This document shows positions 16,702-54,693 of a DNA stretch of 64,000 nt, piece by piece (position 1 is the stretch's first letter; each line of letters opens with the position of its first letter). The notes under the pieces are model-generated. The model saw only the letters and a list, made by a program, of their open reading frames with translations, ran no database searches and was not told the DNA's origin. Source of the stretch: an uncultured Caldisericales bacterium (GTDB lineage Bacteria > Caldisericota > Caldisericia > JAAYUI01); NCBI GenBank assembly GCA_964639885.1, contig CAZXEH010000005.1:16278-80277 (forward strand). The letters run 5' to 3'. Both the position numbers and the translations under genes were made by a program.

Positions 16702-17229
16702 ATGATTGAAACCTTTGAGGGCAAAAGCCCGACAATAGATAAAGAGTCATTCATCCACCCATCATCAACAATAATCGGCCATGCCACCCTTGCATCCAAG
16801 GTTTCCGTCTGGCCCGGAGCAGTTGTCAGAGCCGACGTGAGCACAGCGACGATAGGCGAGCTCTCCAATATTCAGGACAACGCCTGCATCCATGTTGACT
16901 CAGGATGTCCAACCACACTGGGCAAGGGCGTGACAGTCGGTCACGGTGCAATGCTCCATGCCTGCATTGTTGAAGATTTTTCACTGATCGGTATCGGTGC
17001 CATCGTGCTGGACAAGGCACAGATAGGCCACCATTCCATAATTGCAGCCGGAACGCTCATCCCACCCGGCAAAATCATTCCCCCTAATTCAATGGTGATG
17101 GGTTCCCCTGGAAAGGTAGTCAGAGAACTAACCAAGGCGGAAGCAGATCACCTGGAAGACCATGCCAGAAACTACTGGAAACTGGCGGAAAGATTTATCA
17201 CTGGAGGAGCAAATGGCAAAGAATCTTAA
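16702..17229 (+). CDS. Gamma-class carbonic anhydrase family / hexapeptide-repeat protein (YrdA/PaaY-like)
   Basis: 175 aa with left-handed beta-helix hexapeptide repeats and His ligand positions typical of gamma-CA-like proteins. Confidence 0.7.
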   Translation: MIETFEGKSPTIDKESFIHPSSTIIGHATLASKVSVWPGAVVRADVSTATIGELSNIQDNACIHVDSGCPTTLGKGVTVGHGAMLHACIVEDFSLIGIGAIVLDKAQIGHHSIIAAGTLIPPGKIIPPNSMVMGSPGKVVRELTKAEADHLEDHARNYWKLAERFITGGANGKES

Positions 17230-19561: not shown

Positions 19562-22500
19562 ATGAAAAAACTTGCTTTGCTGATCGCCCTGTGCCTGAGC
19601 TGGCCAACATTGTCGCACGCAGCTGACATTGTTGACATCAGCCTTTCAAACCCGGGAACCGACAAAACAACCTCAGTTAACATCGTCTTCCCGAAAGGAA
19701 CAGCCTGGGATGCCGGCGATATCGTCACGGTCACATTTGATGCGACCGAATCGGCAAAGATTGACAAACCTCTTCCGGATTGCGGGTATTCGCCCGACCT
19801 CAATCGCAGATTCAATCCTGGACCGGATTTCTGGGTAAAGTGCAAGGACAATCCGTTTGAAGGCAAGTTTGCAAAAATGTACACGGCAACCATTGGAGAC
19901 ACGGTGTCCATTGACTGGTCAAAAGACCTCGCGCAGTCGTGGATTCCAGGCTTCCTCATGCCTCTCATCCCGGGGAACCAGGAAGCTGCCGCTGAAAAGA
20001 TCGAGAATCTTTTCAAATCGGTTGCAGTCAACGGGGTTCCGTGTAAACCGGAAAAGGGATGTCAAATAGTTTCGACGGCCAACGAAAGAAAAATATCCTT
20101 CCCACTCCCTGAACAGGTGGCCATGATGAAGGATCTCACAATATCAATACCGACATTCTTTGGAATCGTGTGCCCGATGGGCAGTGGCAGCTATTCAGTC
20201 AAGATCGAATCAAGGGTTTCCAATTCAGCAAAAGTAGAAGTGGTCGAACCGATGGTTGCCAATCCATCGCTTGAAATCAACCCAAAGTTCCCGGGCGAAA
20301 AAGCAACATGGAACTTCAGCTTTCAGCTTAGCAAAGCAGGAAAACTGGAACTTGGATCGATAATCGTCCTAAGGCTGCCGGTGGGGTTTGCAAAGCTTCA
20401 GTCGACCTATCCAGGCTTTTTCATTGAGATGAATGGGCTGCTCATCGACAAAAACGCAATAAGGATCGGGCAGGGCGAGAGCTTTGACCAGATATTGATC
20501 CCATGCACAGGCGGAATGGATGCCGGAACACCGGTCAATATTGATCTTAGTGTCAAAAACCCTGGTGAAGGCAACGTTATGTGCTATGTCTACACCACCA
20601 CGGACTCAACTCCTGCAACATTTGGCCCTGAAAAAATCGAGTTTTCCCAAGTTACGACCGCAAGCGAGACGACAGCCGGATTACCGGCATCAATTGCAAC
20701 GAGGTTCAAATCCAAAGGGCACAAGGCAGGCGACAATCTTCTAGCCATTCTGCCATCAGAAATCAACAAGGGCTGCAGAATAACCTTCAACGGACAGGCG
20801 ATTGTCAATCCAACAATGGGTCTCAAAAACGTCCAGTTCGAACTCCCAACCGATCTTGAAGTTGGCGCTTTCTGTCTCCTCCAGTTCTCAGACGTCCTCA
20901 ACCCACTGGAAAGCTCGGTGATCAAAGTATCGATTACGAACTCGAGCTTCGAGATTCCATGGAACGTCACACCCTACCAATCAAGACTCTCTGTTGCAAC
21001 CATACCGCCGGTTGCAAACAAGCCTTGCGCCTACACCTTCCACATCACACCACCACCTGACCTGCTCGATGTCGAAAGAAAGCAGATCACAATCGTTGGC
21101 CCCTGGAACAGAATCCTCAGGCCTCAGGAACCAATGTTCCCGATCATGTCTGGCTCGACCAAAGGCACTGGTGAGTTCGATTCGGCAAATAACCTTGTTG
21201 TTATAAAGCTTGAAGAGGAATTCCCCAATATGAAGCCAATCACAATCGAGATTCCATCATCGGCTGGTTTTGGCTCTCCTGACCAGACTTCAGACTTCAC
21301 AGTCAAAATCTCAAGCACTGAGCTTAAGGCAACCTGTAAGGTGATGCCTGCTCCTCCAGCATATACTTACACAATCAGGACAAAATCCGGTATAGACATT
21401 TCGGAAATCGAAGGCGGATGGTCTAATGAACCAGTGGTAGTAAATATCATTTCATCGTCAGGCAAGTCGGACATCACTGTTTTTGGGCTTGGAGAATCAA
21501 TCAAATCAATGAAGAGCGACCTAACATTAACCATCGACAAAACCATGATCACAGACGAACTGCCGGTATCGGTCAGCGATGTAGGCGGAACAACACGCTT
21601 CACCCTCCCCCAGATTAAGGTCGACCTGGATGAACTGAAACTCAGCCTCACAAACCCGTTTGAAAAAACCGGCGTTTCGCCAACCACAAACCTCATCATA
21701 GGCGTTGAGACCAATAGGAAGATCATCCAGACCGGCAAGGAATTCATGGTTGTCGAACCGGAGATTGACGTATTGCTCAACGATCTTCCGGAGTCATCCA
21801 CAAAACTGAACTCAAGGATTGAAAACACCAGACCGGATGCAAAACTGAGTTTTGACCTTCAGGTTGCTCTGAAATACCAGGTCAATTCAGTGAAAGTAAT
21901 TGTCACCGACCAGACCGGGCGCTCTGTCTCATCTTCTTTCTCCGTAAAGCTCGACGTCAAAACTGTCACCCTCGAATTTGATACAAAACTGGGGCAGGTC
22001 GTCGAACCCGGAAACAATAGAGAAATTCAATTCAAAACTGACCCCGAGACCACAGTCTACATCGGCGAGAAAACCTACAAGGCTGACATGGCCGGCAAGG
22101 TGAAGGCAAAGCTCGACATTACTCCTGGCTACAATGTGTTTTTCACCCAGCTCATCTCGAAAGAAAACGTCAGCTATGAATACCAGGTCTTCATCTTCGG
22201 CAAGAGAACGATAAGGATGAAATCGGAACAGAAGTTTGTCTTCGTTGACGGAAACAGGGTTGACATCAAGGTTCCCCCAACCACCATCACCTACAAGTTC
22301 CAGGCAGGCAAGGATAAAGTCATTCAGGTTCCGGTTGCTTACGCGCCTCTCCGTGTGCTGGCCGAAAACCTGTTTGCAACAGTTGCTTATGATGCAGCAA
22401 CAAAACAGATTACAATCGTCCAGAAGAGACCGGATAGAGACAGAAAGCTGATTTTCACTGTCGATAGTCCTGTTGCCCTTGTCGATGGTCAGCCATATCC

Positions 22501-22687
22501 GATAAACAACGAGTACAACATCCCTGCAATCAACAAGAACGGATCAGTGATGATCCCGACAAGGTTTGCAGCAACATATCTCGGTGCCAAGGTTGGCTTT
22601 GACAACACGACCAAGGAAATCCTCATCGACTGGCCGGATCCCAACGAACCTGCAGCTCCAAAACAAGGTACAACCAAGAATCCGTGA
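19562..22687 (+). CDS. Large secreted cell-surface protein (1041 aa) with two C-terminal copper-amine-oxidase N-terminal-like (CAO-N) domains
   Basis: Signal peptide MKKLALLIALCLSWPTLSHA. Long beta-rich, Ig-like body. The C-terminus has two tandem repeats with V-x-V-A-Y-A-P-L-R-V and I-P-T-R-F-A-A-T-Y-L-G-A-K-V motifs matching the V-P-L-R-F-[VI]-S-E consensus of the other surface proteins here. Confidence 0.65.
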   Translation: MKKLALLIALCLSWPTLSHAADIVDISLSNPGTDKTTSVNIVFPKGTAWDAGDIVTVTFDATESAKIDKPLPDCGYSPDLNRRFNPGPDFWVKCKDNPFEGKFAKMYTATIGDTVSIDWSKDLAQSWIPGFLMPLIPGNQEAAAEKIENLFKSVAVNGVPCKPEKGCQIVSTANERKISFPLPEQVAMMKDLTISIPTFFGIVCPMGSGSYSVKIESRVSNSAKVEVVEPMVANPSLEINPKFPGEKATWNFSFQLSKAGKLELGSIIVLRLPVGFAKLQSTYPGFFIEMNGLLIDKNAIRIGQGESFDQILIPCTGGMDAGTPVNIDLSVKNPGEGNVMCYVYTTTDSTPATFGPEKIEFSQVTTASETTAGLPASIATRFKSKGHKAGDNLLAILPSEINKGCRITFNGQAIVNPTMGLKNVQFELPTDLEVGAFCLLQFSDVLNPLESSVIKVSITNSSFEIPWNVTPYQSRLSVATIPPVANKPCAYTFHITPPPDLLDVERKQITIVGPWNRILRPQEPMFPIMSGSTKGTGEFDSANNLVVIKLEEEFPNMKPITIEIPSSAGFGSPDQTSDFTVKISSTELKATCKVMPAPPAYTYTIRTKSGIDISEIEGGWSNEPVVVNIISSSGKSDITVFGLGESIKSMKSDLTLTIDKTMITDELPVSVSDVGGTTRFTLPQIKVDLDELKLSLTNPFEKTGVSPTTNLIIGVETNRKIIQTGKEFMVVEPEIDVLLNDLPESSTKLNSRIENTRPDAKLSFDLQVALKYQVNSVKVIVTDQTGRSVSSSFSVKLDVKTVTLEFDTKLGQVVEPGNNREIQFKTDPETTVYIGEKTYKADMAGKVKAKLDITPGYNVFFTQLISKENVSYEYQVFIFGKRTIRMKSEQKFVFVDGNRVDIKVPPTTITYKFQAGKDKVIQVPVAYAPLRVLAENLFATVAYDAATKQITIVQKRPDRDRKLIFTVDSPVALVDGQPYPINNEYNIPAINKNGSVMIPTRFAATYLGAKVGFDNTTKEILIDWPDPNEPAAPKQGTTKNP

Positions 22688-28978: not shown

Positions 28979-30622
28979 TCAAAGATCGTTAAGTAACTCT
29001 TCAATATCTTTTCTATGTTGTTGCGTAATTTTTTTATTATTTTTTGCGTTTGCGATTCCTTCAACAATAGCTTTGTGATTTAGTTGAAATTTATTACAGT
29101 ACATGCTTAATTTCTTTGAGATAAATTCTTCTTCAGTGTAATATTCATTATTAATTAAAGCATACAAATACCTTAATTCATTAATTGGAAATCGCTCACC
29201 GTAGTCAATATATCCATTATGAGTATCATCAAATATTATTGGTTTAATATCAGCAAAGAAACATAATATAACTACTGGTTTGTAAAACGGCAATTGTAAT
29301 ATATTGTGAATATAATTATAATTGATGTTATATTTATATATATAAGTTCGAGATAAACTAAAATTGATTTTAGTATATTCATCTAGATGTAATAAATCAA
29401 TATATTCACGCCTATAAAACAAAACTTCTAAGAAGCGCAATTCATCGTAAATATAGATATATTTGAAATTTGTTATAATATCATTTATTATGGGATCAGT
29501 AACTTTATCGACGGACACATTCATTAATGATCCCTCTAGAAATCGAAATAATGAAGATTCAAACCCCAAATTATTAACAATCAATAATACAGTTGTCTCT
29601 CTAACAATGTTTCTAGCCCACTGCAATATTCTGGACGTTAAAATATTCCCATATTTATCATTTAGCAAGTAATTTGATTGAATGTGGACGTTGTATCCAA
29701 TCTTTCTTATAACTTGTCTACATAAATCAGAATTAAACCTTAATTGATTTGATTCGAGTGAAAATTTTGATGAGATAATAATTGATTCTGATTTATTCAA
29801 TATTACATCAAGCAAATCCGTATTAGTGACATCGTTGATGTTAATATAATCAATAATTTCATCTATCAATGTGCCTAAAACCTTATAGTATGTGATTAGA
29901 CTACCATCATCTTTATTAATCTTAATATCTTTATCAATTCTTTGTAATAAATTAATACAATAAGTAACTATCTTATTATATTCTATCATATTAAAATATT
30001 TTTGAATATTTATTTTAATGCCAGATGTAATAAATATTAATGCTAATTCCATTATATCAATATAGTTCTTATTTACATCTATAGTATTCACTTCAAATAT
30101 TAGTATTGGTGATACATAGATTCTAAGTCGGTATATTATAAAAAAAGTTATTGTCCCAAGTGCAAATAAAGAGAAAAGAACTGCCACTGTGCATATAAGA
30201 TTAATAATTACTCGTAAGAAATAATAACCGTTTGGCATGAATACAATAAATAACAAGCCGGTTATAGCCAGAAAAATCGAAATTACGCCCAGAAGTATAA
30301 ATCTATTAATTAGTTCGTCGCTATACATCATTCTTTTAAGCGGTTCATTTACTCCTAATAATTCTGAAACTTTTAAATTAGGAACAACTGTATACAACAA
30401 CGCCAAACCTATCCCCAACAAAGCCCCCATCGTTTGTGCTATCGTCGAGAAAAGATAAAGCGCAGGCGTGTAAAGATCATTGAATTTGTCCTGGTAGAAT
30501 CTTGCAACGACGCTGATGACCACAAAAATGGCTATGACGAAAAAGATTACGAAAGGCCACTTGATTTTGTTGTTCAGTCTGTCGCTGTTCTCTTTTGCCT
30601 TTGGATTGGTCTTGTCTCCCAT
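28979..30622 (-). CDS. Hypothetical membrane protein (547 aa): four N-terminal TM helices plus a roughly 380-aa cytoplasmic domain; encoded in an AT-rich island
   Basis: Uninterrupted ORF inside a segment whose base composition is visibly much more AT-rich than the roughly 50% GC flanks. Codon usage is rich in N, I, K and Y. No recognisable catalytic motif. Confidence 0.6.
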   Translation of the reverse strand: MGDKTNPKAKENSDRLNNKIKWPFVIFFVIAIFVVISVVARFYQDKFNDLYTPALYLFSTIAQTMGALLGIGLALLYTVVPNLKVSELLGVNEPLKRMMYSDELINRFILLGVISIFLAITGLLFIVFMPNGYYFLRVIINLICTVAVLFSLFALGTITFFIIYRLRIYVSPILIFEVNTIDVNKNYIDIMELALIFITSGIKINIQKYFNMIEYNKIVTYCINLLQRIDKDIKINKDDGSLITYYKVLGTLIDEIIDYININDVTNTDLLDVILNKSESIIISSKFSLESNQLRFNSDLCRQVIRKIGYNVHIQSNYLLNDKYGNILTSRILQWARNIVRETTVLLIVNNLGFESSLFRFLEGSLMNVSVDKVTDPIINDIITNFKYIYIYDELRFLEVLFYRREYIDLLHLDEYTKINFSLSRTYIYKYNINYNYIHNILQLPFYKPVVILCFFADIKPIIFDDTHNGYIDYGERFPINELRYLYALINNEYYTEEEFISKKLSMYCNKFQLNHKAIVEGIANAKNNKKITQQHRKDIEELLNDL

Positions 30623-30874: not shown

Positions 30875-33178
30875 ATGAACCGCATTTTACAGCTTGCAAC
30901 CGTTGTGGCAATCCTGGCTTCAGGGGCATGGGTGGACAGGGGAAATCCTGGCCGTTCCGGCACCTTCCCGGACAATGTCAGCCCGAAGTTCTACGACACG
31001 CCGCGATTTGCAAGAAAACTTCTCCCAATCGAAGGAAACGACCAGGTGACCGTCGACGTGAGCCCGGCTGTGGCAAACGGCACCATGGTGATCGTGAGCA
31101 AGGAAGGCAGGATTTATGCGCTTTCCACAGCCGACCTCTCGATGAAGTGGTCGAACGACCTCAAGGTTGTCGGCACCAGCGCCAGCTTTGTGGCCAGCCC
31201 GGCAATTGATGAAGGAAAAATCTACGTTCCCTACTACTGGATCAGCCCCGAACCCTCGTCGACAAGCAAACCAATCGCCGGAATCTGCTGCTACAACCTC
31301 GAAGACGGCAAGCTGGACTGGCGCACCGGCGACAGCAAATCCCTGATCGAATCAACCCCTTTGATCGACGGCAACAAGATTGTTTACGGCTCAAGCGACC
31401 GTCACGTTTATGCAATCGACAAGACCAGCAAAGGCGCACCTTTTGAGGGATGGAACCCAATCGAGCTGACAGGCCAGGTCAAGGCTGGAGTTGCAAAGCT
31501 CGATGACGGCAGATACGTCGTCGCCTGCCAGGGTCAACCGCACACCGACTCGGAATACACCAAAAACCTCTACTGTCTCAACCCAAACGACGGCAGCATC
31601 AGCTGGGGCCCGCTCCAAACCAAGGGTTCAATCGATTACACACCTGCAACTTCGGGCGACTACATTTTTGTCACTTCCTATGGCTACATAATCGGCAGCA
31701 ACACTGACGCAACCGGCACCCTTTACTGCTTTGACCGCGACCGCAACCCAAACGAGATGTGGAATTTCCCGTTCAAGGGCAGAATGACCGGTAGTCCGGT
31801 GACAAACGGAAAATACGTGGTTGCTGCAGACACCGCCCAGGAGATGAGGGTTTTTGCCCTCGATGGAGATAATTTTTCACTCCAGGCAGAATACGTAACA
31901 GATAACATCGTCATGAACTCGCCAGTCATCATTGACCACTACGTCTACGTTGGAACCAGATCAGGCAATCTGTCGATCTACGATCTCGACGCAAAAAAAG
32001 TGGTTGGCCACGACAACGAAACCGGAATCGTCCAAAACCTGAACGTCGGTGGAAATGAAGCATATCTGATGGGTTCGCCAATTGTCTGGAATGATGCTCT
32101 TTTTGCTGTCAACAACATCGGCCATGTTTTCAAATTCGAGATGAAACCAAATATATCGGTGACCTTTGAAAAAACTGAACAGACAGTGAAAAAGGGCGAG
32201 CAGTTCAGGTTCAGGGCGGTTGTCAAGAATGAACGTGAGCAGAAACTTCCAAAATCAGTAAAAATAACACTTCGCACCGATGCTGACTGGCTCTCAGCCG
32301 ACACAGACACAACCGTTTCGATCATCGACGCCGGGCAACAGGCCATCATTGAATTTTCTGGCACCGCAGAAAAGGCAACCTACGATCATCTCATAGCAAA
32401 AGTCATCATCTCCAGTGACAACCCGGAAATAACCTTTGAACCGGTAAACCTCATCCTGTTTGTAACCGAGAAAAATCTTCAGATAACCTACATCGGTGGC
32501 TCATCAACAATCTGGGATGACGAGCTTGTCAGGACGATGAACATCACAAACACCGGCAACACACAGATTTTGTTTGATGTCATAACGGATATCGGCGTTA
32601 CAATGATCTCCCCGAGCAGATCCATCTTGCTCAACCCTGACGCCTCCATTGAACTAAAATTTGAAATTGATCCAAAAGCGTGTGGCTTTGACAAGCCTGT
32701 CGAGCTCAAGTTCAGCTTCAGGAGCGACGGTGAGGACCTGGCCAATTACATCCTCAAATGCACCCTCAAACGCTCAATGAAGATAATAAAGCTGGCAATC
32801 GGCAAGCCAAAGGCAACCGTTGACGACACTGAAATCAATGTTGACCCGCCACCGTTCATAAGCAAAAACATCACTATGGTTCCACTCAGATTTGTGTCGG
32901 AAGGTCTTGGGCTAAAGATTGAATGGGTGGCGGACATCAAAACCATCATCGTTGATCTCGGCAACGAGAACTACCTGAGGCTGCTTATCAACTCGCTGAA
33001 AGCCTACATTGACATGCCTGATGGCTCGATCAGGGAAGTTCCGCTTGCTTCAGCACCACAGATCGTGAAAGGGAGAACGTTCGTCCCGCTTCGCATCATC
33101 TCCGAAATGTTCAACTGTGATGTGGCCTGGGATGCCAAGACAAAGGGGATAACGATCACAAAGAAGTTGAAACCTTAA
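30875..33178 (+). CDS. Secreted PQQ-like beta-propeller protein with Ig-like domain and two C-terminal CAO-N-like domains
   Basis: Signal peptide MNRILQLATVVAILASGAWV. Repeated propeller blades such as GRIYALS and KLDWRTGD. C-terminal motifs ITMVPLRFVSEGLGLKIEW and GRTFVPLRIISEMFNCDVAWD. Confidence 0.7.
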   Translation: MNRILQLATVVAILASGAWVDRGNPGRSGTFPDNVSPKFYDTPRFARKLLPIEGNDQVTVDVSPAVANGTMVIVSKEGRIYALSTADLSMKWSNDLKVVGTSASFVASPAIDEGKIYVPYYWISPEPSSTSKPIAGICCYNLEDGKLDWRTGDSKSLIESTPLIDGNKIVYGSSDRHVYAIDKTSKGAPFEGWNPIELTGQVKAGVAKLDDGRYVVACQGQPHTDSEYTKNLYCLNPNDGSISWGPLQTKGSIDYTPATSGDYIFVTSYGYIIGSNTDATGTLYCFDRDRNPNEMWNFPFKGRMTGSPVTNGKYVVAADTAQEMRVFALDGDNFSLQAEYVTDNIVMNSPVIIDHYVYVGTRSGNLSIYDLDAKKVVGHDNETGIVQNLNVGGNEAYLMGSPIVWNDALFAVNNIGHVFKFEMKPNISVTFEKTEQTVKKGEQFRFRAVVKNEREQKLPKSVKITLRTDADWLSADTDTTVSIIDAGQQAIIEFSGTAEKATYDHLIAKVIISSDNPEITFEPVNLILFVTEKNLQITYIGGSSTIWDDELVRTMNITNTGNTQILFDVITDIGVTMISPSRSILLNPDASIELKFEIDPKACGFDKPVELKFSFRSDGEDLANYILKCTLKRSMKIIKLAIGKPKATVDDTEINVDPPPFISKNITMVPLRFVSEGLGLKIEWVADIKTIIVDLGNENYLRLLINSLKAYIDMPDGSIREVPLASAPQIVKGRTFVPLRIISEMFNCDVAWDAKTKGITITKKLKP

Positions 33179-33181
33179 AAC

Positions 33182-34207
33182 TCAGGCTTCTACAACAATC
33201 TTTGTTTCACCTTCCAGTGTCTGACCAATCCACTCGGCATTGACGCCTGCTTTTTTGAGCTTGAACACGCACTCCTCTGCTTTGTCCATATTTATGAAAG
33301 CGAGCAGCCCACCGGAAGTTTGTGCGTCTCCAAGCAGATTTGTCCACTCGGCAGAAACATTTTCCCCAATCTGAAGACGATGCTCGACCGATGAGATGTT
33401 TTCCATCAGAAGTGGGCAGGTATAGTTTTTTGCTGCCTCAAAGGCGTCTTTGAACAGTGGAATTTTTGAAACATTGATTTTTGCGCCAATTTTTGATTCC
33501 TCAAGCAGCTCGTAAAGCGAAACGGCAAAGCCAAAGCCTGTGACATCGGTTGCACACCGGCAGTCGTACTGGGCAAGGATTCGTGAAGCTCTGCAGTTTA
33601 TTTGAGTCATCGACTGAATACACTGGTTGAAATCGTATTTCTCGCGGGCTGCGTAGAGGATGCCGGTTCCAAGGGGCTTTGTCAGAATAATAGCCTGTCC
33701 TGGTCTGCCTGCGTTTGACATCCTGATGTCACCGGGTTTTGCAGTCCCAAAAACTGAAAGGCCAAACTTTACTTCCTGATCCTTTGCCGTGTGACCGCCG
33801 ACGATGAGCACGTTGTGTTCGATGGCAGCCAGAGCACATCCGCGAAGGATTTCGGCAAGTTTTGGCGTTTCAATTTCTCTGGGGAAAAGGGCAATGTTGA
33901 GCGCAAGCAAAGGCTGGCCACCCATTGCACAGATGTCTGAAACCGAGTTTGCAAAAACGATTCTGCCAAATGTTTCAGGATCATCGACTATGGGGGCAAA
34001 TACATCAACCGTGAAAATCCCCAGCAGGTCGTCAGTGAGTTTGTAGACAGCAGCATCGGATTTTGAAAGGTCGCCGGTCAGCAGCCGTTCATCAGTCATT
34101 TTTGGCAGGTTGGACAAAAGGTCGGCGAGGTCACCCGGACCCCATTTGCTTGCTCAGCCGGCACATCCAGCCCATTTTGTGAGTTTGAAGACTTCGTCTC
34201 TCTCCAT
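33182..34207 (-). CDS. selD: Selenide, water dikinase SelD; selenocysteine-containing form with in-frame TGA (Sec) at 34154-34156
   Basis: The track ORF (33182..34117) begins at a TTG. Reading upstream in the same frame gives ...KMTDERLL preceded by ASKWGPGDLADLLSNLP, then TGA, then MERDEVFKLTKWAGCAG. The assembled N-terminus L-T-K-W-A-G-C-A-G-U-A-S-K aligns with E. coli SelD L-T-Q-Y-S-H-G-A-G-C-G-C-K, so the TGA sits at the catalytic Cys/Sec position. Downstream, DAAVYKL...FAPIVDDPETFGRIVFANSVSDICAMGG is typical SelD. Confidence 0.75.
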
Positions 34208-34212
34208 CTTAT

Positions 34213-36144
34213 TTATGGCAGGATAACACAAGAGGCTTCATCATTCAAGACGATCCTCAGGGCGTTCCCTCTCTGCGAGACTGTGCCTGATCCCTCAAAA
34301 ATCCTGTTCGGGCCTGACCATATTCCTTCCGTGAACATAACGGCTCCGTTTTCAAAAAACTGAAGAGGCTGGCTCTCAGAGAGGAGGTTTATTGATCCGC
34401 TGGAAGGGTCAACAACGTAACAGCCATTGGTTTTCTTTATGATTATCTGGCCAAGGTCGAGCAGGGGGTTGAAGGCTTTTGTCGAGTAAACCTGCTCGCA
34501 GTTGAGCGACCAGAGTTCCACTCCGTCGACGAAACACTTCAGGATGCCTGAAGGATTGTAGAAAATCTGGCACATCTTGTCCTGGGTTGAAATAAATCCA
34601 AGTCCCCTGAAGCCCGGATTTGGGTTTGGCTGGACAAAGGTGTTGTTTTTATCGAGAGGGGTCGATGTGCCCGAATTTGGATCGATGAGATAATGGTTTT
34701 CGGAGTTAAGGGATTCTGCAATCCAGACCTGTTCGTTCTCGTTCCACGAGATCGAGAGCGGTTCTTCGGCAATTTTTGTCTGCCATTCGGCCTCGCCTGA
34801 ACCGGTGTTGAATCCAACAATGTCAGTGCCTTTGAAAAAACAGATGATTGCCGGCTGGACATTCTTCACCCCGCCGACCTGCCACGAACCATCGAGATTC
34901 CAGGCATAACGCCTGCCGTAGACACCGACACAGGTTCCATCTGCATTGAAAAGGCCAACGCCAAAATCGCTGGTTTCACCCATGCGTCTGAAATGGAGTC
35001 CCTGCTGAGCCTTGCCCAGCTTGAAAACCTTCATGTTTTCAGTGTCGAATTCACACAGGGTGTTGTCGACGATTGAGAAGTAGCGGGTGGTTGATCCGTC
35101 CTGGGACTGGATTTGTCTGGCAAATTCAGCGACAAACATCCTGGGATCCTTGACTTCCACCTGCTTGAGAGACTGGGCATCATATCCGGCTATTATCAGG
35201 GCATCCTTTTTCATACCTGAAAATACCAGCGTTCCACCGTAGAGTGAAAGGTCAAGAATGGTGTCATGGGGAGGCAGTTTTGCCTGAATGGTGTGGCCTG
35301 AATTGTCAGTGACCTTCAGGAACCCGTCCTGTATGTAGGAGTTGAAATAACCTCCGTTTGCAAACCACTCATGAGCCGATGATTCAATGTTTGAAGCGGT
35401 GACAATCATTGACAACTTTGCACCGGGATGGAGCCAGACATTCTGACGCTTGAAAAGGAGTGGGATGGAAACCATGTCTCCGCCAACCTTTGCTGTCAGA
35501 TTTTTTGCGTCTGCAAACGAGACCGGCGTGACGCCAACGAGTTCGTCACCCCTGTAAATCTGGATGCCTTCGGGGATCGAGGTGATGTTGATTGAATCGC
35601 CCTGGCTCGAGCCTGTTTTTGGGGTTTTCCCAAAGAACACTTCAACCTTTTTCTTCTCGTCAAATTCAAGGTCAATTGGGCCGTATTTTTTGGCCTGACC
35701 GTCAAGGTTGAGGATAAACGTATATACACCTGGAGGCAGGTGAACATCCACAGGCGTTTTGCCAAGTGGCTGCGAAATATCAGATGCAACGCTGACCTGT
35801 GCGCCTTGCGGATTCGAGGTGAAACTGACAACCGGTTCTGTTCCGCAAACCACCTTTGTCACTTCACCCTTTGAAATGGAAAAGGTGCCTTTGAGTTCCA
35901 TTTTTGAATCGGCAACTCCTTGCATCAGACCCTTGTATTCATGGCTACCTGTGGTCAAAGGAATTGAAAATTCTGTGCCATTGCCATAGCTGATGCCGTC
36001 TATCTCAAGATCAATGGCTTTTTTGCATTCAAGGCTTAGGGTTCCCTTATCTGGAGCGAGCATGACAACACTGGCAACCACGAGTGCTGCTGCAACCAGC
36101 ACAACAACAATGGCTGGAACTACCCATTTCAGTTTTGCGGCCAC
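34213..36144 (-). CDS. Membrane-anchored protein with PEGA-like domains and a C-terminal beta-rich domain
   Basis: N-terminal TM helix WVVPAIVVVLVAAALVVASVV. PEGA-like segments such as GVTPVSFADAKNLTAKVGGD and PLGKTPVDVHLPPGVYTF. 643 aa. Stop lies 5 nt before the selD ATG. Confidence 0.55.
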   Translation of the reverse strand: MAAKLKWVVPAIVVVLVAAALVVASVVMLAPDKGTLSLECKKAIDLEIDGISYGNGTEFSIPLTTGSHEYKGLMQGVADSKMELKGTFSISKGEVTKVVCGTEPVVSFTSNPQGAQVSVASDISQPLGKTPVDVHLPPGVYTFILNLDGQAKKYGPIDLEFDEKKKVEVFFGKTPKTGSSQGDSINITSIPEGIQIYRGDELVGVTPVSFADAKNLTAKVGGDMVSIPLLFKRQNVWLHPGAKLSMIVTASNIESSAHEWFANGGYFNSYIQDGFLKVTDNSGHTIQAKLPPHDTILDLSLYGGTLVFSGMKKDALIIAGYDAQSLKQVEVKDPRMFVAEFARQIQSQDGSTTRYFSIVDNTLCEFDTENMKVFKLGKAQQGLHFRRMGETSDFGVGLFNADGTCVGVYGRRYAWNLDGSWQVGGVKNVQPAIICFFKGTDIVGFNTGSGEAEWQTKIAEEPLSISWNENEQVWIAESLNSENHYLIDPNSGTSTPLDKNNTFVQPNPNPGFRGLGFISTQDKMCQIFYNPSGILKCFVDGVELWSLNCEQVYSTKAFNPLLDLGQIIIKKTNGCYVVDPSSGSINLLSESQPLQFFENGAVMFTEGIWSGPNRIFEGSGTVSQRGNALRIVLNDEASCVILP

Positions 36145-38426
36145 GGAATAACCACCTTCTTCCCGCCCATATCTGCAAGCATGGCCCTGTGACCCGATGA
36201 TTCCAAAGGTTCAAGACCGTCGATGCCGGTGAAATAGCCACGATTGAGACCGTCCCTGTCGATAATCCAGATTCGCTTGTCAAAGTACAGGGCTAGGAAA
36301 CGTTTGTCGCCAAGGATCAATCCATTTTTTGGTGATCCGAGTCCAGGAAGTGTTAGTTCGAGAATGGGTCTGAGCATGTGGGAACCGAGGATGGTGACCT
36401 TGTTCGATTCGATTTGGACAGGCCCCCATGGAGACGGTAGAAGTAGACCGGTTTTGAAGGTTCTCTCCCATGTGGGTTTGAATTTACCGTTCTCGTCCAG
36501 CTTCACACCTGAAACTGCCTTGTTGCCTGACAGCACAAACGATCCACCTGGACAGGCCGAACCCTGAATTGCTTCCTCAGCTGACTGTGGCTTCACACGC
36601 CTTTCGATCTGTTCGCCGGTTTTCAGGTCAAGCTGGTATTCGAACGGTGAGGTTGGGAAATTTATTAGCACAACATCTTTGCCCTTTGACCTTGAGATTG
36701 TCGGATCGGACTTTCTGGGTTTGTCGACATACCTGCTCCATTTGTAGCGACCTTGAGGATACATGACTGCTGCAACTGTGAAATCAGAGTAGACGATAAA
36801 AGTCTTTCCGGTGTCAAAGCCTGCATCAAAACATGCTCCCTGAGGATCAATCGTCAGTGGCATCCATGTCCAGCCCTTGTCGGCGTCAGCTCCCTGAGGA
36901 CCTTCAAGCAATGCGGAGTACTTTTCCCTGTTGTTGACTTTGTATTCAGTGAGTTTGTGTGGAACTGCAACTGTGGGGTCGAGAACCATCATGCCGGTCG
37001 CCTTGCCCCTTTTCAGAGAGAAGATGAAAATCGGGTGTCCGTCATCGGTTGCCGAAAAACTTACACCAAGGAATTTTGCCGTCTCGTCGTTGTTAACCCT
37101 TTTGATAAACCTGAAGGTTTCAAGGTTTTTTACAACAACGGCTTCGATTGCTGCAATCCTGCCTTCACCATTGACCACGGTTTCCCAGACATTGCCATAG
37201 CAATTCCAGCTGCCTGATTTGAACGGTTGTGTGGCAAGAGGGAGTATCGAGCCTTCGAACTTCTTTTGAACGTCAATCTCCTTGCCGGTTTTTATCTCAA
37301 TGCAAAACGGGGTTGAACGGGGATCAGACGGGATGCCAGCCATGCCATAAATATTGTTGGTATCAGTTTTGTAAATAATCACCGGTCGAAGGTCAAACGC
37401 CCTGTCGATCTTCTGCGTCCAGACCCTCTGACCCGATTCAAGATCAATACAGTCAACGAAAGGATAGCCGGTAGCATAAAGCAGCGATGATCCATCCTGT
37501 GCGACGGTTGCGCCTCTTGCATCACCTGGCAGTGTGAACAAATCCCTGCCAAAGTACATGCACGGATTGTAAATGGTTTCCGGCCATGAGATTTCGATGG
37601 GCTTGCCAACCGATGGAAACATGACCTGCGTGCAAAGAATCTGCTGGCCATAATAGTTCATGCAGACCTTGTGGAATCCGCTTGGAAGCAACGTCTGCGA
37701 ACCCTTGGCATATTCCTTTCCGTCAACAGTCAGTTCTGCGCCTTCGATCAACTTTGGAACTGAGAAGTTGGTTGTGAGCTTTCTGGAACCTGGCTGATTG
37801 AGCGCCAGTTCGTCGAAATCGGCTGAGATATTGATTATTTCGGCACCAGAGGAGAGAAAACTCTTCTGATACTCAGGAAAACCAGGGAGCCTCATCACAA
37901 CATCGTATTGCCCATAAGGAAGTTTGGTTCTCAGGGGAGTGGTTCCTAGGCTTGCATCGCCTTCGAGCGAACTCAGGACAATGGCTGCCTTTTGAGGCTT
38001 TGTGTCGAACACAACGTCTGAAACGTTGATCAATTCAATGGTTTCACTTCTTCCAGGGGATATGTCGACCTTCTGGACATCCATGTCCATGAAAGGGATC
38101 GTTTCAAGAGGGACAGCCTTGACCACATGTCTGCCAGGGTCGATTGTCCTGATGAAAACCGTTGAGCCTTTGCCTAAAGGTTTGTCGTCGACAAAGATTT
38201 CAGCAGGCACCTTGCACTCGATTGTCAGGGACGGTGTTTTGGGCCAGACGGTTACGGTGAGCCACACGAGCAGGACAAAACCTATTCCTATCGCTGTGTA
38301 AACAAGGTACTGCCTCAATTTGGCAATTGTCTGTGCGGAAACATCCCTCTTAATCTTCGGAGTTTTGGGATCATATAGGTTGAAGGCCATGCAAACTAAG
38401 ATAAGGCTTGCAGTTTTGGCGGTCAA
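36129..38426 (-). CDS. Membrane-anchored protein with PEGA-like domains (paralogue of 34213..36144)
   Basis: TM helix YTAIGIGFVLLVWLTVTVW. PEGA-like GTTPLRTKLPYGQYDVVMRLPGF. Start is either the TTG at 38426 or the ATG at 38390. Overlaps the next gene by 16 nt. Confidence 0.55.
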   Translation of the reverse strand: MTAKTASLILVCMAFNLYDPKTPKIKRDVSAQTIAKLRQYLVYTAIGIGFVLLVWLTVTVWPKTPSLTIECKVPAEIFVDDKPLGKGSTVFIRTIDPGRHVVKAVPLETIPFMDMDVQKVDISPGRSETIELINVSDVVFDTKPQKAAIVLSSLEGDASLGTTPLRTKLPYGQYDVVMRLPGFPEYQKSFLSSGAEIINISADFDELALNQPGSRKLTTNFSVPKLIEGAELTVDGKEYAKGSQTLLPSGFHKVCMNYYGQQILCTQVMFPSVGKPIEISWPETIYNPCMYFGRDLFTLPGDARGATVAQDGSSLLYATGYPFVDCIDLESGQRVWTQKIDRAFDLRPVIIYKTDTNNIYGMAGIPSDPRSTPFCIEIKTGKEIDVQKKFEGSILPLATQPFKSGSWNCYGNVWETVVNGEGRIAAIEAVVVKNLETFRFIKRVNNDETAKFLGVSFSATDDGHPIFIFSLKRGKATGMMVLDPTVAVPHKLTEYKVNNREKYSALLEGPQGADADKGWTWMPLTIDPQGACFDAGFDTGKTFIVYSDFTVAAVMYPQGRYKWSRYVDKPRKSDPTISRSKGKDVVLINFPTSPFEYQLDLKTGEQIERRVKPQSAEEAIQGSACPGGSFVLSGNKAVSGVKLDENGKFKPTWERTFKTGLLLPSPWGPVQIESNKVTILGSHMLRPILELTLPGLGSPKNGLILGDKRFLALYFDKRIWIIDRDGLNRGYFTGIDGLEPLESSGHRAMLADMGGKKVVIPWPQN

Positions 38427-41574: not shown

Positions 41575-42371
41575 TTCAGGCCATCATCACCGATCTGGAC
41601 GGAACACTGCTGACTCCGGACGGAACCATATCTCCTGCAAACAGGGAAATCCTTAAACATGCAATGTCTCATGGTATCAGAGTCATCCTCGCCTCAGGAA
41701 GACGTTACCTCTCCACTGAGAAATTTGCCAGAGAACTCGATCTGGACGAATTTATCATCGCCTATTCCGGTGCATGGGTGAAAAAAACTTCGGCTCCTGT
41801 TCCAATCATTCAATACGAAATGCCCTATGATGCTTCGGTTGAGTACATGCGAGAAGTAAGGGGGAAAGTCGATTTGTGCGGTGTTTATCTGGATGACACT
41901 TTTTATGTGGAACAGAAAAATGATTGCCTTGAACGTTATGAAACCAAATCACACCTAAAAGCTATTGAAGTAAACGATGTTTGTGAGTTCCTGATGGGTG
42001 AAAAGCGCAACCCAACCAAGATTTTCACCCTTGCCAAACCGGAGATTCTTGAGATAATCACAACAGAGATGCGTGAAAGGTTTGAAGGGATTCTCGACTT
42101 TGTAAAATCATGGGAGACCTATCTTGAGGTTGGCCCGATCGGCGTTTCAAAGGGCTCTTCGCTCCTTGAGCTTGCCAGACGTGAAAACCTCAACCTCTCA
42201 AACTGTGTGTTTTTTGGAGATCAGGAAAATGACATCTCCGCCATGGAAGTGGTGGGCATCTCCGTGGCAATGGGCAACGCCACTCAGGAAGTCAAACAAA
42301 AGGCGACAATGATTGCACCTCCGAACTTTGAGGACGGTGTGGCCAAAGTCCTCGAAAGGATAATGGGATGA
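41571..42371 (+). CDS. Cof-type HAD-IIB family phosphatase
   Basis: Motif I ITDLDGTLL, a cap domain, and C-terminal FGDQENDISAM. ATGA overlap upstream. Confidence 0.8.
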   Translation: MIQAIITDLDGTLLTPDGTISPANREILKHAMSHGIRVILASGRRYLSTEKFARELDLDEFIIAYSGAWVKKTSAPVPIIQYEMPYDASVEYMREVRGKVDLCGVYLDDTFYVEQKNDCLERYETKSHLKAIEVNDVCEFLMGEKRNPTKIFTLAKPEILEIITTEMRERFEGILDFVKSWETYLEVGPIGVSKGSSLLELARRENLNLSNCVFFGDQENDISAMEVVGISVAMGNATQEVKQKATMIAPPNFEDGVAKVLERIMG

Positions 42372-44062
42372 GAAAACTGATGCTTCTCCTGTGCCTGTGT
42401 CTTCTTCCGCTGCCGGCACTGGCTGCTGACGGTACAGTTTCCGTAAAGCCAATAGAAAAGTCTGTTCAAGTGGGCGACATCGTAAAAGTCGACATCAGGG
42501 CGGCAGGGCTTGCCAATCTCTACTCTGTCAAATACGAGGTTGTTTATGAAAACAGGATCATCACCTTCAAAGAACTCGAACTTGGCAGTCTTCTTGCCAA
42601 CGACCCAAAACCAATAGCAAACTACACCGTCAAAAAAGACGGAGACAAATCGAGAATAATTTTTGGTGCATCATTTACCAACATAAAAAACAAATTTCCC
42701 GAATCAGGCACATTTTTCACCATCCAGTTCAAGGCAATCGACTCATCCAAGGCATCACCGATAAAAATTGAAAAGATTGAAGGCAGGGACTATCGTTTTG
42801 ACATTGTCAAACTGAACGTTGAGAACTCGGAAATCGCCGTAACCGCACTACCGACAAAGCCAAATCTTGTGATTGACCCTAAAGAGCTCGATTTTGGAAC
42901 TCTCAGATCAGGCGAATCCAAAACGCTCAAATCGCACATCAGCAACGACGCAAAGGCTGGACTCAAGGGCTCAATTGAGCCTGACAACACATGGATTGAG
43001 GTTGATCCGGCAAAGTTCGACAAGGACGAATTCGATGTAACAATCACGGTCAAACCGGTTGACGGCCTGCTCCTGAATAAACAGCACATCGGCTATGTCC
43101 AGGTGGTTACAAACGGCGGTTCCCAGTCAATCAGATGCCGTTTTTACTATCAGGAGACCGCAATCGACGACCTCCCGCCAGACCTGACCATCACTGAGCC
43201 GGCCGATAAGGCGCTCCTCAACAAGTCGGCAATCCGCATAAAGGGAAGAACAAACCCGGGTGTGGCAATCTTCGTCGGCAACAACGCCAAGGAAGTGGGT
43301 GAAGACGGATCTTTTGATTTCCCGTACGACCTCCACGAAGGCGACAACACAATCACGGTCACAGCCAAAAAGGATACCGGAAAAACGACAGACAAAACCA
43401 TTGTCATCACCCTCGACTCAATGCCCCCGCCACTCAACGTGAAAGACCCAGGCGAAACAGTTCACACCAGCCCGATATGGATTGAAGGCGCAACAGAAAA
43501 AACAGCAACCATCAAAGCCGGTGGAAAACCGATCAAACCGGACAGCAACGGTAATTTCAGAATTTCGTTTGACCTGAAGGCAGGTGAGAACAAGCTGGAA
43601 ATAATTGCTGTCGATCAGGCAGGAAACTCGACACCGTGGGGTAAAGTGGTCAAGTTCGTTCCACAGGAAACCATCAGCATAAAAATGTGGGTTGGCAAAC
43701 CTGAAGCATACATCAATGGCGAACTCAGATATCTTGAAGTTCCGCCAACGGTTGTGGGCGGCAGAACCTTCGTTCCGCTCCGCTTCGTTTCTGAAAACTT
43801 CAGGGCCGACGTGAAATGGGATCCAGACACCAGATCAGTCACCGTTCACGGGCAGAACCACTCTTGTACTGTTTTCATTGATTCCAAGAACGCATTCCTG
43901 GACGGCATACCAAAGCTGCTCGAAGCTGCACCGTTCATCAAGAATGGAAAATCCATGGTTCCACTCAGATTCATCTCTCAAGACACGCTCTCGGCAGCCA
44001 TCCTCTGGGACAACAACGAAAAAAGGATAGACCTGACTCTGGTCATCGACATAAAACCGTGA
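42368..44062 (+). CDS. Secreted surface protein with Ig/CARDB-like domains and two C-terminal CAO-N-like domains
   Basis: Signal peptide MRKLMLLLCLCLLPLPALA. C-terminal GRTFVPLRFVSENFRADVKWD and GKSMVPLRFISQDTLSAAILWD. ATGA overlap with the Cof gene. Confidence 0.65.
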   Translation: MRKLMLLLCLCLLPLPALAADGTVSVKPIEKSVQVGDIVKVDIRAAGLANLYSVKYEVVYENRIITFKELELGSLLANDPKPIANYTVKKDGDKSRIIFGASFTNIKNKFPESGTFFTIQFKAIDSSKASPIKIEKIEGRDYRFDIVKLNVENSEIAVTALPTKPNLVIDPKELDFGTLRSGESKTLKSHISNDAKAGLKGSIEPDNTWIEVDPAKFDKDEFDVTITVKPVDGLLLNKQHIGYVQVVTNGGSQSIRCRFYYQETAIDDLPPDLTITEPADKALLNKSAIRIKGRTNPGVAIFVGNNAKEVGEDGSFDFPYDLHEGDNTITVTAKKDTGKTTDKTIVITLDSMPPPLNVKDPGETVHTSPIWIEGATEKTATIKAGGKPIKPDSNGNFRISFDLKAGENKLEIIAVDQAGNSTPWGKVVKFVPQETISIKMWVGKPEAYINGELRYLEVPPTVVGGRTFVPLRFVSENFRADVKWDPDTRSVTVHGQNHSCTVFIDSKNAFLDGIPKLLEAAPFIKNGKSMVPLRFISQDTLSAAILWDNNEKRIDLTLVIDIKP

Positions 44063-48609: not shown

Positions 48610-49728
48610 TCAGTCGCCCAACACCTTCACAGTCAGGCTGAATTTTCCAAACCTTGAGGTCAGGAAAGCTGCAGTGGCCGATTTGTAATCAAGAAGATGC
48701 TGATCGCCAGGGTCGAGGCTAATCGGGAATGACCAGCCTCTGGAGAAATCGTAAGCCCAGATGTCGACTCCCTTGTCGTAGTAGTCACGCTTGTCGCTCC
48801 AGATGGCAATCGGCCAGTGAAGTTCAAGATTTTCCTTTTCAGTCAGCGGAATCCTCGATACCAGTTCAGGCTTCATGTCAACACCGGAAAGGGTTACAAG
48901 CATTATCTTGCAATCGATTGTCCAGGACAGCGGCTCAAGCAGATAGGCGAGATGCCCGTCAGAAATTGATGCGCCTGTCACATCCTCGGTCGAAGTGTCA
49001 ACAGGTATTTCCAGTTTTTCGACGATGTCGTAAACAAAAAGATCACGGTCTGGCCTGAATCCGTATCTTCCAATAATTGAAACAAACCTGCCATCGATGG
49101 CTGTGCAATACTGGTCACCTGGCTCAACGCAGATTCCTTCGGACTTTCCGGAGGGAAAATCGTACATCCACACGTCCAGATCGGTCTGGTCATCCTGCTG
49201 TGTCCAGAAAACCTTTGTGCTGTTTGCAAGAATGTGGGTCGGCTTCTCAAAAGACTCGGCCCTGACCAATGTTTTCTTGCCTGTTGTCAGATTGTGGCAC
49301 CAGATTGTGAACCTGCCCGAATCTTCACAAACCCAGACCACAATGTCACCGTAAACCCAAAATCTGCTTTCGTCACCAGGAAGGTTTGAGATGACGGACT
49401 TGTTGCCTTCGAGGTCGGTCATCGCAAGATCGGCCTGCGTTTCCCAGCCATTCTTGACACAATATATGATTTTGCCACCGGCAAAGACTGGAGAGGTCTC
49501 AACCGTGCTTGTGTCGGTAATCCTTTTTTCATCACCTGTAGATGTGTCCAGCATCCAAAGGTCTGCCTGACCATCGATGGGTCTGCCAAAAACGACCGTG
49601 GAGCCAGAGATTGAAGCATGTACCGGTCTTGGAAAATCGCCGTAGGTGGTGACGGGATCGACAGCATTTACACCAGAAAGACCGGCTATAACAACGATAA
49701 AAACTGCGGCAAGAAATATCTTCTTCAT
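48610..49728 (-). CDS. Secreted TolB-like (PD40/WD40-type) beta-propeller protein
   Basis: Signal peptide MKKIFLAAVFIVVIAGLSG from the internal ATG. Repeated D-x-W blades. Confidence 0.5.
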   Translation of the reverse strand: MKKIFLAAVFIVVIAGLSGVNAVDPVTTYGDFPRPVHASISGSTVVFGRPIDGQADLWMLDTSTGDEKRITDTSTVETSPVFAGGKIIYCVKNGWETQADLAMTDLEGNKSVISNLPGDESRFWVYGDIVVWVCEDSGRFTIWCHNLTTGKKTLVRAESFEKPTHILANSTKVFWTQQDDQTDLDVWMYDFPSGKSEGICVEPGDQYCTAIDGRFVSIIGRYGFRPDRDLFVYDIVEKLEIPVDTSTEDVTGASISDGHLAYLLEPLSWTIDCKIMLVTLSGVDMKPELVSRIPLTEKENLELHWPIAIWSDKRDYYDKGVDIWAYDFSRGWSFPISLDPGDQHLLDYKSATAAFLTSRFGKFSLTVKVLGD

Positions 49729-49753
49729 TCGTTCCTCCATTGCCAATGCTGGT

Positions 49754-54663: not shown

Positions 54664-54693
54664 TTTATTTGTTTCTCCTTTTTAGTTTTTGCT

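Follow-up and report, generated by a model that had tools for sequence, protein, structure and literature searches.

An in-frame UGA at the catalytic codon of selD in an uncultured Caldisericales bacterium almost certainly encodes selenocysteine

Introduction

The locus described here raises a simple question: does the TGA that lies in frame ahead of the called start of selD end an open frame, or is it a codon for selenocysteine (Sec) inside a longer gene? The original prediction, made on the window (the whole 64-kb stretch of DNA analysed here, from an uncultured Caldisericales bacterium), took the second view, holding that selD encodes a selenoprotein in which Sec replaces the catalytic cysteine and that the 5′ end of the gene had been cut off by ORF calling. 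The SelD proteins of Haemophilus influenzae and Aquifex contain Sec. Among the selenoprotein families of prokaryotes only one is more widespread than Sec-containing SelD, whose mis-annotation has been documented (PMC13188914, PMC13326102, PMC1794560).

Results

The selD reading frame

The ORF lister gives selD as 33182..34117, a product of 311 aa opening at TTG 34117, and these coordinates check on the minus strand. The predicted upstream extension of the frame was confirmed. It opens at ATG 34207-34205, contains one internal TGA (34156-34154) and ends with the stop codon 33184-33182; the gap between the ATG and the preceding stop is 5 nt, and the frame translates as MERDEVFKLTKWAGCAG, the internal stop and then ASKWGPGDLADLL... 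(341 codons, one internal stop). The features of the gene and its surroundings are as follows.

33182..34207, minus strand: full-length selD coding sequence, 341 codons plus stop, with putative Sec at codon 18
34205..34207, minus strand: likely true selD start, ATG, 5 nt past the TAA of the upstream gene
34154..34156, minus strand: in-frame TGA, putative Sec codon (residue 18), equivalent to E. coli SelD Cys17 in the phmmer alignment
34097..34117, minus strand: downstream starts in the calls of ORF and gene finders, TTG 34117-34115 and ATG 34099-34097 (MTDERLL...)
34213..36144, minus strand: upstream co-oriented gene, 643 aa, TAA at 34215-34213, a conserved neighbour of selD in the lineage

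Relatives carry a Met in the selD frame 2–3 residues ahead of a conserved [DE][EDK][VIAE]F[KRQ]L motif, examples of the start region being MNSDEVFKL, MDRDEVFKL, MTSEEVFKL and MDKEDVFRL. No strong Shine-Dalgarno sequence is visible at ATG 34207-34205. The 643-aa upstream gene had no NCBIfam match and its orthologues show a faint match to the PEGA domain; at loci L084–L087 a 753-aa gene, the 643-aa gene and selD lie together with a convergent PQQ-propeller/Cu_amine_oxidN1 gene.

Identity as selenophosphate synthetase

The product of this locus is a complete selenophosphate synthetase (SelD; selenide,water dikinase). Searched with C in place of U, the extended protein scored 280.6 bits against the selD equivalog model TIGR00476.1 (cut-off 125), matching profile positions 1–309 of 311, and fell below cut-off for the other SelD equivalog models (NF002098, 222.7 against 299; NF010705, 122.7 against 291). 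The best PDB matches were Aquifex aeolicus SelD, 2yye (E 2.6e-55, residues 6–332 aligned), and E. coli SelD, 3u0o (E 8.6e-43, residues 6–329). The Pfam domains PF00586 and PF02769 (AIRS and AIRS_C) are precomputed for a 99%-identical database protein, P0001. In the clade alignment, which contains no E. coli sequence, D68, D91 and D221 do not vary and D51 hardly does; the conserved Asp residues of SelD serve as ATP/metal ligands.

The expectation that the TGA would fall on the catalytic Cys in an alignment with E. coli SelD was borne out, phmmer matching residue 18, encoded by the TGA, with Cys17 of 3u0o and Lys21 with Lys20. The loop AGCAG-U-ASK aligns to GAG-C17-GC-K20 in E. coli and SSG-C-AAK in Aquifex; the glycine-rich N-terminal loop of SelD, with its catalytic Cys/Sec position and a Lys three residues on, is thus present.

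Conservation on both sides of the TGA

Fourteen distinct relatives (48–96% identical) have TGA at the same selD codon, and all 14 keep the pattern [DE]x[FV]F[KRQ]L[TS]xxxxCAG-TGA-[AE]SKWGP. The original prediction was to be given up if homologues had no conserved sequence upstream of the TGA; such sequence is present in every relative. The 15 codons 5′ of the TGA are conserved at the protein level, with synonymous variation, across relatives only ∼50% identical overall. Normalised synonymous entropy is 0.68 in the codons upstream of the TGA against 0.78 in the remaining gene, showing that the upstream codons vary synonymously while the protein is conserved. Comparison of the aligned coding sequences establishes that purifying selection acts on both sides of the UGA. 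An in-frame UGA opposite the Cys of homologues, with conserved protein on both flanks, is one mark of a bacterial selenoprotein gene, and selD bears it.

The same selD coding sequence, TGA included, was found in four independent assemblies (0–4 mismatches in 1026 nt). JGI 3300022666 contig Ga0248168_1000729 carries an identical selD. A pattern scan of metagenomes for CAG-TGA-[AE]SKWGP returned six loci, some of them duplicates. Of the window's 44 open frames with 200 codons or more, 26 are closed by TGA; it is thus the most frequent ordinary stop, which indicates that the genetic code has not been reassigned.

A conserved hairpin downstream of the UGA

RNA structure downstream of the UGA was analysed in the window sequence and in its relatives, and two mutually exclusive hairpins can be drawn.

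34127..34143, minus strand: conserved hairpin GGGGUC-CGGGU-GACCUC, 6 bp, RNAalifold consensus, candidate bacterial SECIS core
34133..34137, minus strand: its apical loop CGGGU, in which the second base, G (column 21, position 34136), is the wobble base of an invariant CCG Pro codon
34119..34142, minus strand: alternative, species-specific hairpin drawn in the original prediction, the MFE structure, which excludes the conserved hairpin

Numbered from the U of the UGA, the stem of the conserved hairpin occupies columns 14–19/25–30; the stem starts 10 nt and the loop 16 nt past the UGA, and the energy of the hairpin is −8.1 kcal/mol. Across relatives 97.6% of cells are paired, compared with 46–77% for slid controls. 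Pair 18/26 is compensatory, 11 sequences having G-C and three U-A, where the U-A form combines a synonymous change (Gly GGG to GGU) with Ala GCC to Asp GAC; this sole compensatory pair probably reflects a single evolutionary event. In the hairpin codons the wobble positions admit only bases compatible with pairing, and synonymous entropy there is 0.35, compared with 0.78 (p = 0.001, based on just four codons). The Pro codon in the loop is CCG in 14 of 14 sequences; at a second conserved Pro, 11 codons further on, all four codons occur. Taken together, these substitution patterns demonstrate constraint on the selD hairpin at the RNA level, and the hairpin presumably binds SelB.

The published bSECIS model specifies a loop of 3–9 nt, an upper stem of 4–16 bp, a G in loop position 1–2, a distance of 16–37 nt from the UGA and an MFE ≤ −7.5 kcal/mol (PMC13188914). 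The conserved hairpin fits each of these (loop of 5 nt, 6 bp, G at position 2, spacing of 16 nt, −8.1 kcal/mol), lying at the lower limits for spacing (16 nt) and for energy (−8.1 against the threshold of −7.5 kcal/mol). In most relatives the loop reads C-GUC-G or C-GUU-G, matching N1-G-[G/U]-N-N2. A strict bSECIS enumerator, applied to the bare 17-mer with no dangling ends, failed the window sequence and passed 10 of the 14 clade members. An Rfam covariance-model scan of 34040-34240 yielded nothing relevant at a threshold as loose as E ≤ 10, a result that carries little weight.

The hairpin of the original prediction, said to begin eleven nucleotides after the UGA at a spacing matching that of a bacterial SECIS, is the longer one. 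Its string starts 10 nt after the UGA, with the first paired base at 11 nt, and it is indeed the MFE fold, with pair probabilities of 0.8–0.98 in an isolated 60-mer; in isolated mRNA of the window's species it (34142-34119) occludes the conserved hairpin. It is not conserved, with 65% of cells paired in relatives, and was rejected as the SECIS core. The conserved element is the shorter hairpin, nested in the 5′ part of the same string. The 71-nt segment around the UGA folds no better than shuffled sequences (z = −0.21), so that single-sequence thermodynamics is uninformative.

Sec-type and Cys-type SelD in other phyla

A comparison set of 80 loci was compiled from the SelDs of other phyla listed by a profile search of genome contigs with the clade alignment; the SelDs listed are distant, with identities of 43% or less, and 68 of the loci could be classified. 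Among the matches listed, 51 of the 68 classifiable genes have TGA at the catalytic codon and the other 17 have a TGY Cys codon. Folding of the downstream 45 nt is more stable, among these matches, for the Sec-type genes than for the Cys-type (−16.9 vs −10.4 kcal/mol, p = 5e-6; folding z −1.56 vs −0.27, p = 3e-4), and the bSECIS model was passed by 43/51 Sec-type and 3/17 Cys-type genes among the matches listed (p = 1e-6). A hairpin in the same register as that of the Caldisericales gene was not significantly commoner in the listed Sec-type genes (9/51 vs 0/17, p = 0.10), and the idea that this register is a Sec-specific feature of all phyla was rejected. Many of the other-phyla Sec-type genes among the matches listed bear a stronger hairpin at +28–48. 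Motifs of the SelA type (FSGDKLLGGPQ) and the SelB type occur together at 10 of the 80 listed loci, and that of the SelB type alone at three more.

Sec machinery and other candidate selenoprotein genes

No selA, selB or tRNA-Sec was found within the 64-kb window or the clade loci examined. Pfam scans of 40 window ORFs, together with motif scans, gave no selA or selB; ARAGORN and Rfam detected only a tRNA-Trp in the window and no tRNA-Sec, and ARAGORN found no tRNA-Sec in 16 clade loci. We infer, as the original prediction did and with good reason, that the genome encodes selA, selB and selC. Joining frames across TGA in the window yielded 105 mechanical candidates, none of which besides selD looked plausible as a split gene, as judged from coordinates and lengths only; the remainder were rejected as same-frame neighbour genes, overlaps with stronger ORFs or segments of 10–12 codons. 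In the literature search on Caldisericota plus selenocysteine, neither term appeared in any title or abstract found.

Discussion

The UGA at the catalytic residue of selD almost certainly encodes selenocysteine. That selD is a selenoprotein gene truncated by ORF calling, as originally proposed, is supported by the TIGR00476 score, the conserved N-terminus, the TGY codon of Cys-type homologues and the hairpin. The full reading that we favour, and hold with high confidence, is that the gene encodes a complete Sec18-SelD whose UGA is decoded via SelB and a short downstream stem-loop, the shorter products of gene callers being artefacts of annotation. Under this scheme ATG 34207 would be the start of translation, which is probably coupled to that of the upstream gene. 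At the UGA, a stem-loop just downstream in the mRNA (6 bp, with the loop CGGGU beginning 16 nt past the UGA) would recruit SelB-GTP-Sec-tRNA(Sec), and Sec would be inserted in place of termination.

Could the TGA be a real stop instead, the product being a truncated protein from TTG 34117 or ATG 34099 and the 17 codons upstream a spacer or remnant? In-frame start codons are available downstream, the Sec machinery was not seen in the window, and 19 of the 19 nearest entries among 5.8 billion proteins are truncated calls that begin at these starts or close to them (281–314 aa, 80–91% query coverage). These calls, however, start at non-homologous codons (M, L or V, in varying columns), as is typical of caller artefacts, and a genuine stop is hard to reconcile with 15 preceding codons whose protein is conserved, with synonymous variation, in relatives ∼50% identical, or with the position of the TGA exactly on the catalytic Cys/Sec codon. 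The loop Cys/Sec and Lys are essential in E. coli SelD, and the truncated product would lack both these residues of the glycine-rich loop. Termination at this codon is accordingly highly improbable. Scarcely more credible is readthrough of the UGA with Trp, Cys or Gly inserted, whether through suppressor or near-cognate decoding or because UGA has been reassigned lineage-wide. In favour of this, SelD would remain active with Cys at this position, as it is in E. coli, and the Sec machinery of this genome is itself deduced. Reassignment is countered by the use of TGA as the most frequent ordinary stop of the window (26/44 long frames), and simple leaky readthrough would have no need of a conserved, SECIS-fitting hairpin after the UGA; the same arrangement, moreover, adjoins selA/selB in other phyla.

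That the TGA arose in this one contig through faulty sequencing or assembly, or through a recent mutation that inactivated selD and left a pseudogene, has next to no probability. Damaged copies or assembly errors do occur in the family, a related locus (L089) having a frameshift further into selD, but the same sequence in four independent assemblies and the matching TGA codon of 14 diverged lineages effectively refute this explanation, and the remainder of selD is intact and constrained. An extended version of the Sec reading is itself unlikely, namely that the gene belongs to a deep-branching, wholly mis-annotated Caldisericota Sec-SelD clade with SelD as its main or only selenoprotein, and that in the window's species the hairpin 34142-34119 acts as a switch for UGA recoding. 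This competing hairpin is thermodynamically dominant there and masks the 3′ arm of the minimal SECIS; as a switch it would tune UGA recoding and hence the supply of selenophosphate. The autoregulation supposed in the original prediction has long been hypothesised for Sec-SelD, and any selenium-dependent feedback on SelD synthesis is speculation in the present case.

With decoding of the UGA as Sec, the significance of the locus is mainly that of an annotation correction: the true SelD has 341 residues with Sec18, as opposed to database products of 305–311 residues. These products of gene callers, which lack the Sec/Cys-x-x-Lys catalytic loop, are annotation artefacts. The finding also predicts that an uncultured Caldisericota lineage decodes UGA as Sec, in which case other selenoprotein genes of the genome may be split or truncated in annotations. 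Sec-SelD and its frequent mis-annotation are already well known in bacteria, and conceptually nothing new is added (PMC1794560, PMC13188914, PMC13326102).

Among known systems, the closest are the Sec-SelDs of other bacteria (Acetomicrobium mobile, Haemophilus influenzae, Aquifex aeolicus 2yye/2zod), which belong to the same family (TIGR00476, AIRS + AIRS_C), have the UGA at the same place in an N-terminal G-x-G-U-x-x-K loop, and show the same tendency to truncated mis-annotation (PMC13326102). The canonical SECIS predicted for A. mobile SelD in BSepDB, UGAGCAGCCAAAUUGGGUCCGGCGGACCU (PMC13326102), forms a similar GGGUCC...GGACC hairpin, 11 nt past the UGA as against 10 nt here. The Caldisericales gene differs from other Sec-SelDs in its host, an uncultured lineage assigned to Caldisericota from ProRS, in its motif CAG-U-ASKWGP, with Trp after the Lys, and in its minimal hairpin of 6 bp with a spacing at the 16-nt lower bound; the second conserved hairpin at +28–48 found in many other phyla is absent here, and amino-acid identity to SelDs outside its own clade is ≤ 44% among the matches listed.

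E. coli SelD (3u0o) shares the AIR-synthase-like core and the loop Lys (K20; K21 here) but has Cys17, encoded by TGC, in place of the TGA and needs no SECIS, and its second Cys, at position 19, is replaced here by Ser20. In the experimentally defined paradigm, the E. coli fdhF SECIS, the upper stem begins ∼10–11 nt past the UGA and the loop carries G followed by G/U. The hairpin described here likewise lies inside the coding sequence and directly follows the UGA; it has no sequence homology to the fdhF element, no conserved bulged U can be assigned, and a conserved lower stem enclosing the UGA is lacking, the possible lower-stem registers differing among relatives.

The selD reading frame

The complete selD frame (34207..33182, minus strand) comprises 341 codons and a stop, and is translated as MERDEVFKLTKWAGCAG*ASKWGPGDLADLLSNLPKMTDERLL... 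The ORF lister recovered only the part downstream of the internal TGA.

34213..36144, minus strand: upstream gene, ending in TAA at 34215-34213, five nucleotides from the selD ATG
34207-34205, minus strand: selD start ATG, from sequence reading
34156-34154, minus strand: internal TGA, the only one in the frame, from translation
33182..34117, minus strand: selD as called by the ORF lister (TTG start, 311 aa)

With U written as C, the product scored 280.6 bits on NCBIfam TIGR00476 (selD; cut-off 125), and its closest solved structures were those of selenide,water dikinase from Aquifex aeolicus (2yye, E 2.6e-55) and from E. coli (3u0o, E 8.6e-43). The N-terminal loop is covered in each alignment; E. 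coli Cys17 lies on the TGA codon (residue 18) and Lys20 on Lys21.

Conservation and translation across the TGA

A search of 5.8 billion proteins returned 19 close SelD relatives (48-99% identical), all of them shortened calls of 281-314 residues with 80-91% query coverage; distant SelDs (≤44% identity) were mostly full length. DNA was fetched for eleven of the 19 close proteins, and six further loci came from a metagenome pattern scan. The TGA occupied the same codon in 14 of 14 distinct sequences, within the motif [DE]x[VIAE]F[KRQ]L[TS]xxxxCAG-TGA-[AE]SKWGP.

Codons 5′ of the TGA keep their amino acids while changing synonymously (for example Cys, TGT in 10 and TGC in 4; Ala, GCC in 5, GCA in 3 and GCT in 6), with a mean normalised synonymous entropy of 0.68, compared with 0.78 in the bulk of the gene. 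Such synonymous variation with conserved amino acids marks this stretch as translated. A sequencing error or private mutation is ruled out, since the same CDS was found in four independent assemblies with 0-4 mismatches in 1026 nt. Likewise, reassignment of UGA is excluded because TGA is the most frequent ordinary stop in the window, ending 26 of 44 long frames.

These data support the interpretation that selD is of the Sec type (TGA at the catalytic codon) and was shortened by ORF calling. The original prediction had the frame, TGA, ATG and upstream stop correctly placed, and its proposals of a selenoprotein gene with TGA at the catalytic Cys position, and of an N-terminus lost in ORF calling, are supported by the E. 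coli alignment, the 14 relatives and the 19 shortened database proteins.

In one relative, locus L089 (about 2870-3010), selD retains the TGA and N-terminus, and the frame is lost about 30 codons on (...LLTRNLKKGRCRNI*); P0018, the database protein called from it, restarts further in. Either the assembly contains a frameshift here or this copy is a pseudogene.

A conserved hairpin downstream of the UGA

The window's mRNA after the UGA, taken alone, folded no better than shuffled sequences (z = -0.21). Across the 14 sequences, RNAalifold predicted one helix, in which columns 14-19 pair with columns 25-30 (numbered from the first base of the UGA).

34143-34127, minus strand: conserved hairpin GGGGUC-CGGGU-GACCUC, RNAalifold consensus checked against the window sequence
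34142-34119, minus strand: longer hairpin of the original prediction, columns 15-25 with 30-38

In the conserved hairpin 97.6% of cells are paired; shifting the 3′ arm by 1-3 columns lowers this to 46-77%. At pair 18/26, 11 sequences have G-C and 3 have U-A, and the U-A form combines a synonymous Gly GGG to GGU change with Ala GCC to Asp GAC. Wobble positions of the hairpin codons are limited to pair-preserving bases, and these codons have a synonymous entropy of 0.35, compared with 0.78 in other codons (p = 0.001; only four codons). In 14/14 sequences the second loop base comes from a CCG Pro codon; at another conserved Pro, eleven codons further on, all four Pro codons occur.

Conserved hairpin and the published bacterial SECIS (bSECIS) model (PMC13188914)
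Apical loop: model 3-9 nt; hairpin 5 nt
Upper stem: model 4-16 bp; hairpin 6 bp
G in loop positions 1-2: model, required; hairpin, G at position 2
UGA-to-loop spacing: model 16-37 nt; hairpin 16 nt
MFE: model ≤ -7.5 kcal/mol; hairpin -8.1 kcal/mol

The hairpin agrees with every constraint of the model, with spacing at the lower limit and energy near the limit, and most relatives carry C-GUC-G or C-GUU-G loops, matching the common N1-G-[G|U]-N-N2 pattern.

Folding the sequence of this species gives the longer hairpin as its minimum-energy structure (pair probabilities 0.8-0.98; -10.5 kcal/mol alone, against -8.1 for the conserved hairpin), and in this species and the near-identical loci L100-L103 the two are mutually exclusive. 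With only 65% of cells paired in relatives, and a loop without the G required by the bSECIS model, it was rejected as the SECIS core and is taken to be species-specific. A SECIS-like hairpin does follow the UGA, as originally proposed, and the minimum-energy fold was correct, but the element drawn is unconserved and the conserved one is shorter. Judged from the alignment, the SECIS assignment is refined to this shorter hairpin as the candidate bSECIS core.

Sec-type SelD in other phyla

A genome scan gave at least 80 SelD loci from other phyla, 68 of them classifiable at the catalytic codon: TGA in 51/68 and TGY (Cys type) in 17/68. Among the matches listed, the 45 nt downstream folded more stably in Sec than in Cys types (-16.9 vs -10.4 kcal/mol, p = 5e-6; z-score -1.56 vs -0.27, p = 3e-4), and 43/51 against 3/17 passed the bSECIS model (p = 1e-6); the clade's exact hairpin register showed no significant Sec specificity among them (9/51 vs 0/17, p = 0.10). 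Many of these genes have a stronger second hairpin, located +28 to +48 relative to the UGA and capped by a GUN triloop (GCGCAG-GUN-CUGCGC); this hairpin overlaps a conserved A-Q-V-L peptide and is missing from the Caldisericota clade.

Gene neighbourhoods and the remainder of the window

Caldisericota-lineage selD lies in a conserved block (window 30875-38426; also loci L084, L085, L086 and L087), not beside selenium genes. The block opens with two large proteins (one of about 750 aa, one of 643 aa), whose orthologues show no more than faint PEGA matches and which have none in NCBIfam; next come selD and, convergently oriented, a PQQ-like beta-propeller protein of 743-768 aa that ends in a Cu_amine_oxidN1 domain. 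In a sister sub-clade (SelD about 53% identical, also Sec-type), selD is last in an apparent selenium-handling operon, after YedE-like Sulf_transp, TusA/YedF-like, Aminotran_5 (cysteine desulfurase or Sec lyase-like) and Se_S_carrier (PF11823) genes.

L089 153-3846; L098 1-2427; L099 1-2397: apparent selenium-handling operon of the sister sub-clade

The window's ProRS shares 90% identity with proteins labelled Caldiserica/Caldisericota bacterium and 71% with one from a Caldisericales MAG. Pfam scans covered 40 ORFs; the window contains an Opp-type ABC transporter, a mur/ftsW cell-wall cluster and many Cu_amine_oxidN1-domain proteins. Large examples of the latter are unusually dense (19562-22687, 42368-44062, 49754-52231, 59924-62704 and 30875-33178), with Ig-like, cohesin, glucodextranase-B or PQQ-propeller partner domains, combinations that suggest a putative lineage-specific cell-surface anchoring module. 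Four large ORFs (378-765 aa) are unannotated: 17162-18727 (+), 28979-30622 (-) and 48610-49746 (-) gave no Pfam match at E ≤ 1e-5, and 36129-38426 (-), scanned with NCBIfam only, gave none there.

57745-57820, minus strand: tRNA-Trp(CCA), then secE and nusG (block 56703-57820)

Past nusG lie four ORFs (54286-56691) that would fit rplK, rplA, rplJ and rplL, judged by size only. No rpoB-sized ORF follows them within the window; genes for an S15 X-Pro dipeptidyl-peptidase (52391-54079) and for a surface protein with Cu_amine_oxidN1 lie there instead.

Sec machinery and comparison with known SelD genes

Scans for tRNAs, Pfam domains (40 ORFs) and motifs detected no selA, selB or selC in the 64-kb window, which is uninformative because the window covers just a small fraction of the genome; we infer that the Sec machinery is encoded in this genome. 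SelA and SelB signature motifs occurred together in ten of the at least 80 listed loci from other phyla, and a SelB-type motif alone in three more.

Sec in SelD as a possible means of autoregulation is an old hypothesis. The window's selD is a new, formerly mis-called example of the well-known Sec-SelD kind. The canonical SECIS predicted for Acetomicrobium mobile SelD in the BSepDB paper (UGAGCAGCCAAAUUGGGUCCGGCGGACCU...) forms a comparable GGGUCC...GGACC hairpin that begins one nucleotide farther from the UGA than here (PMC13326102).
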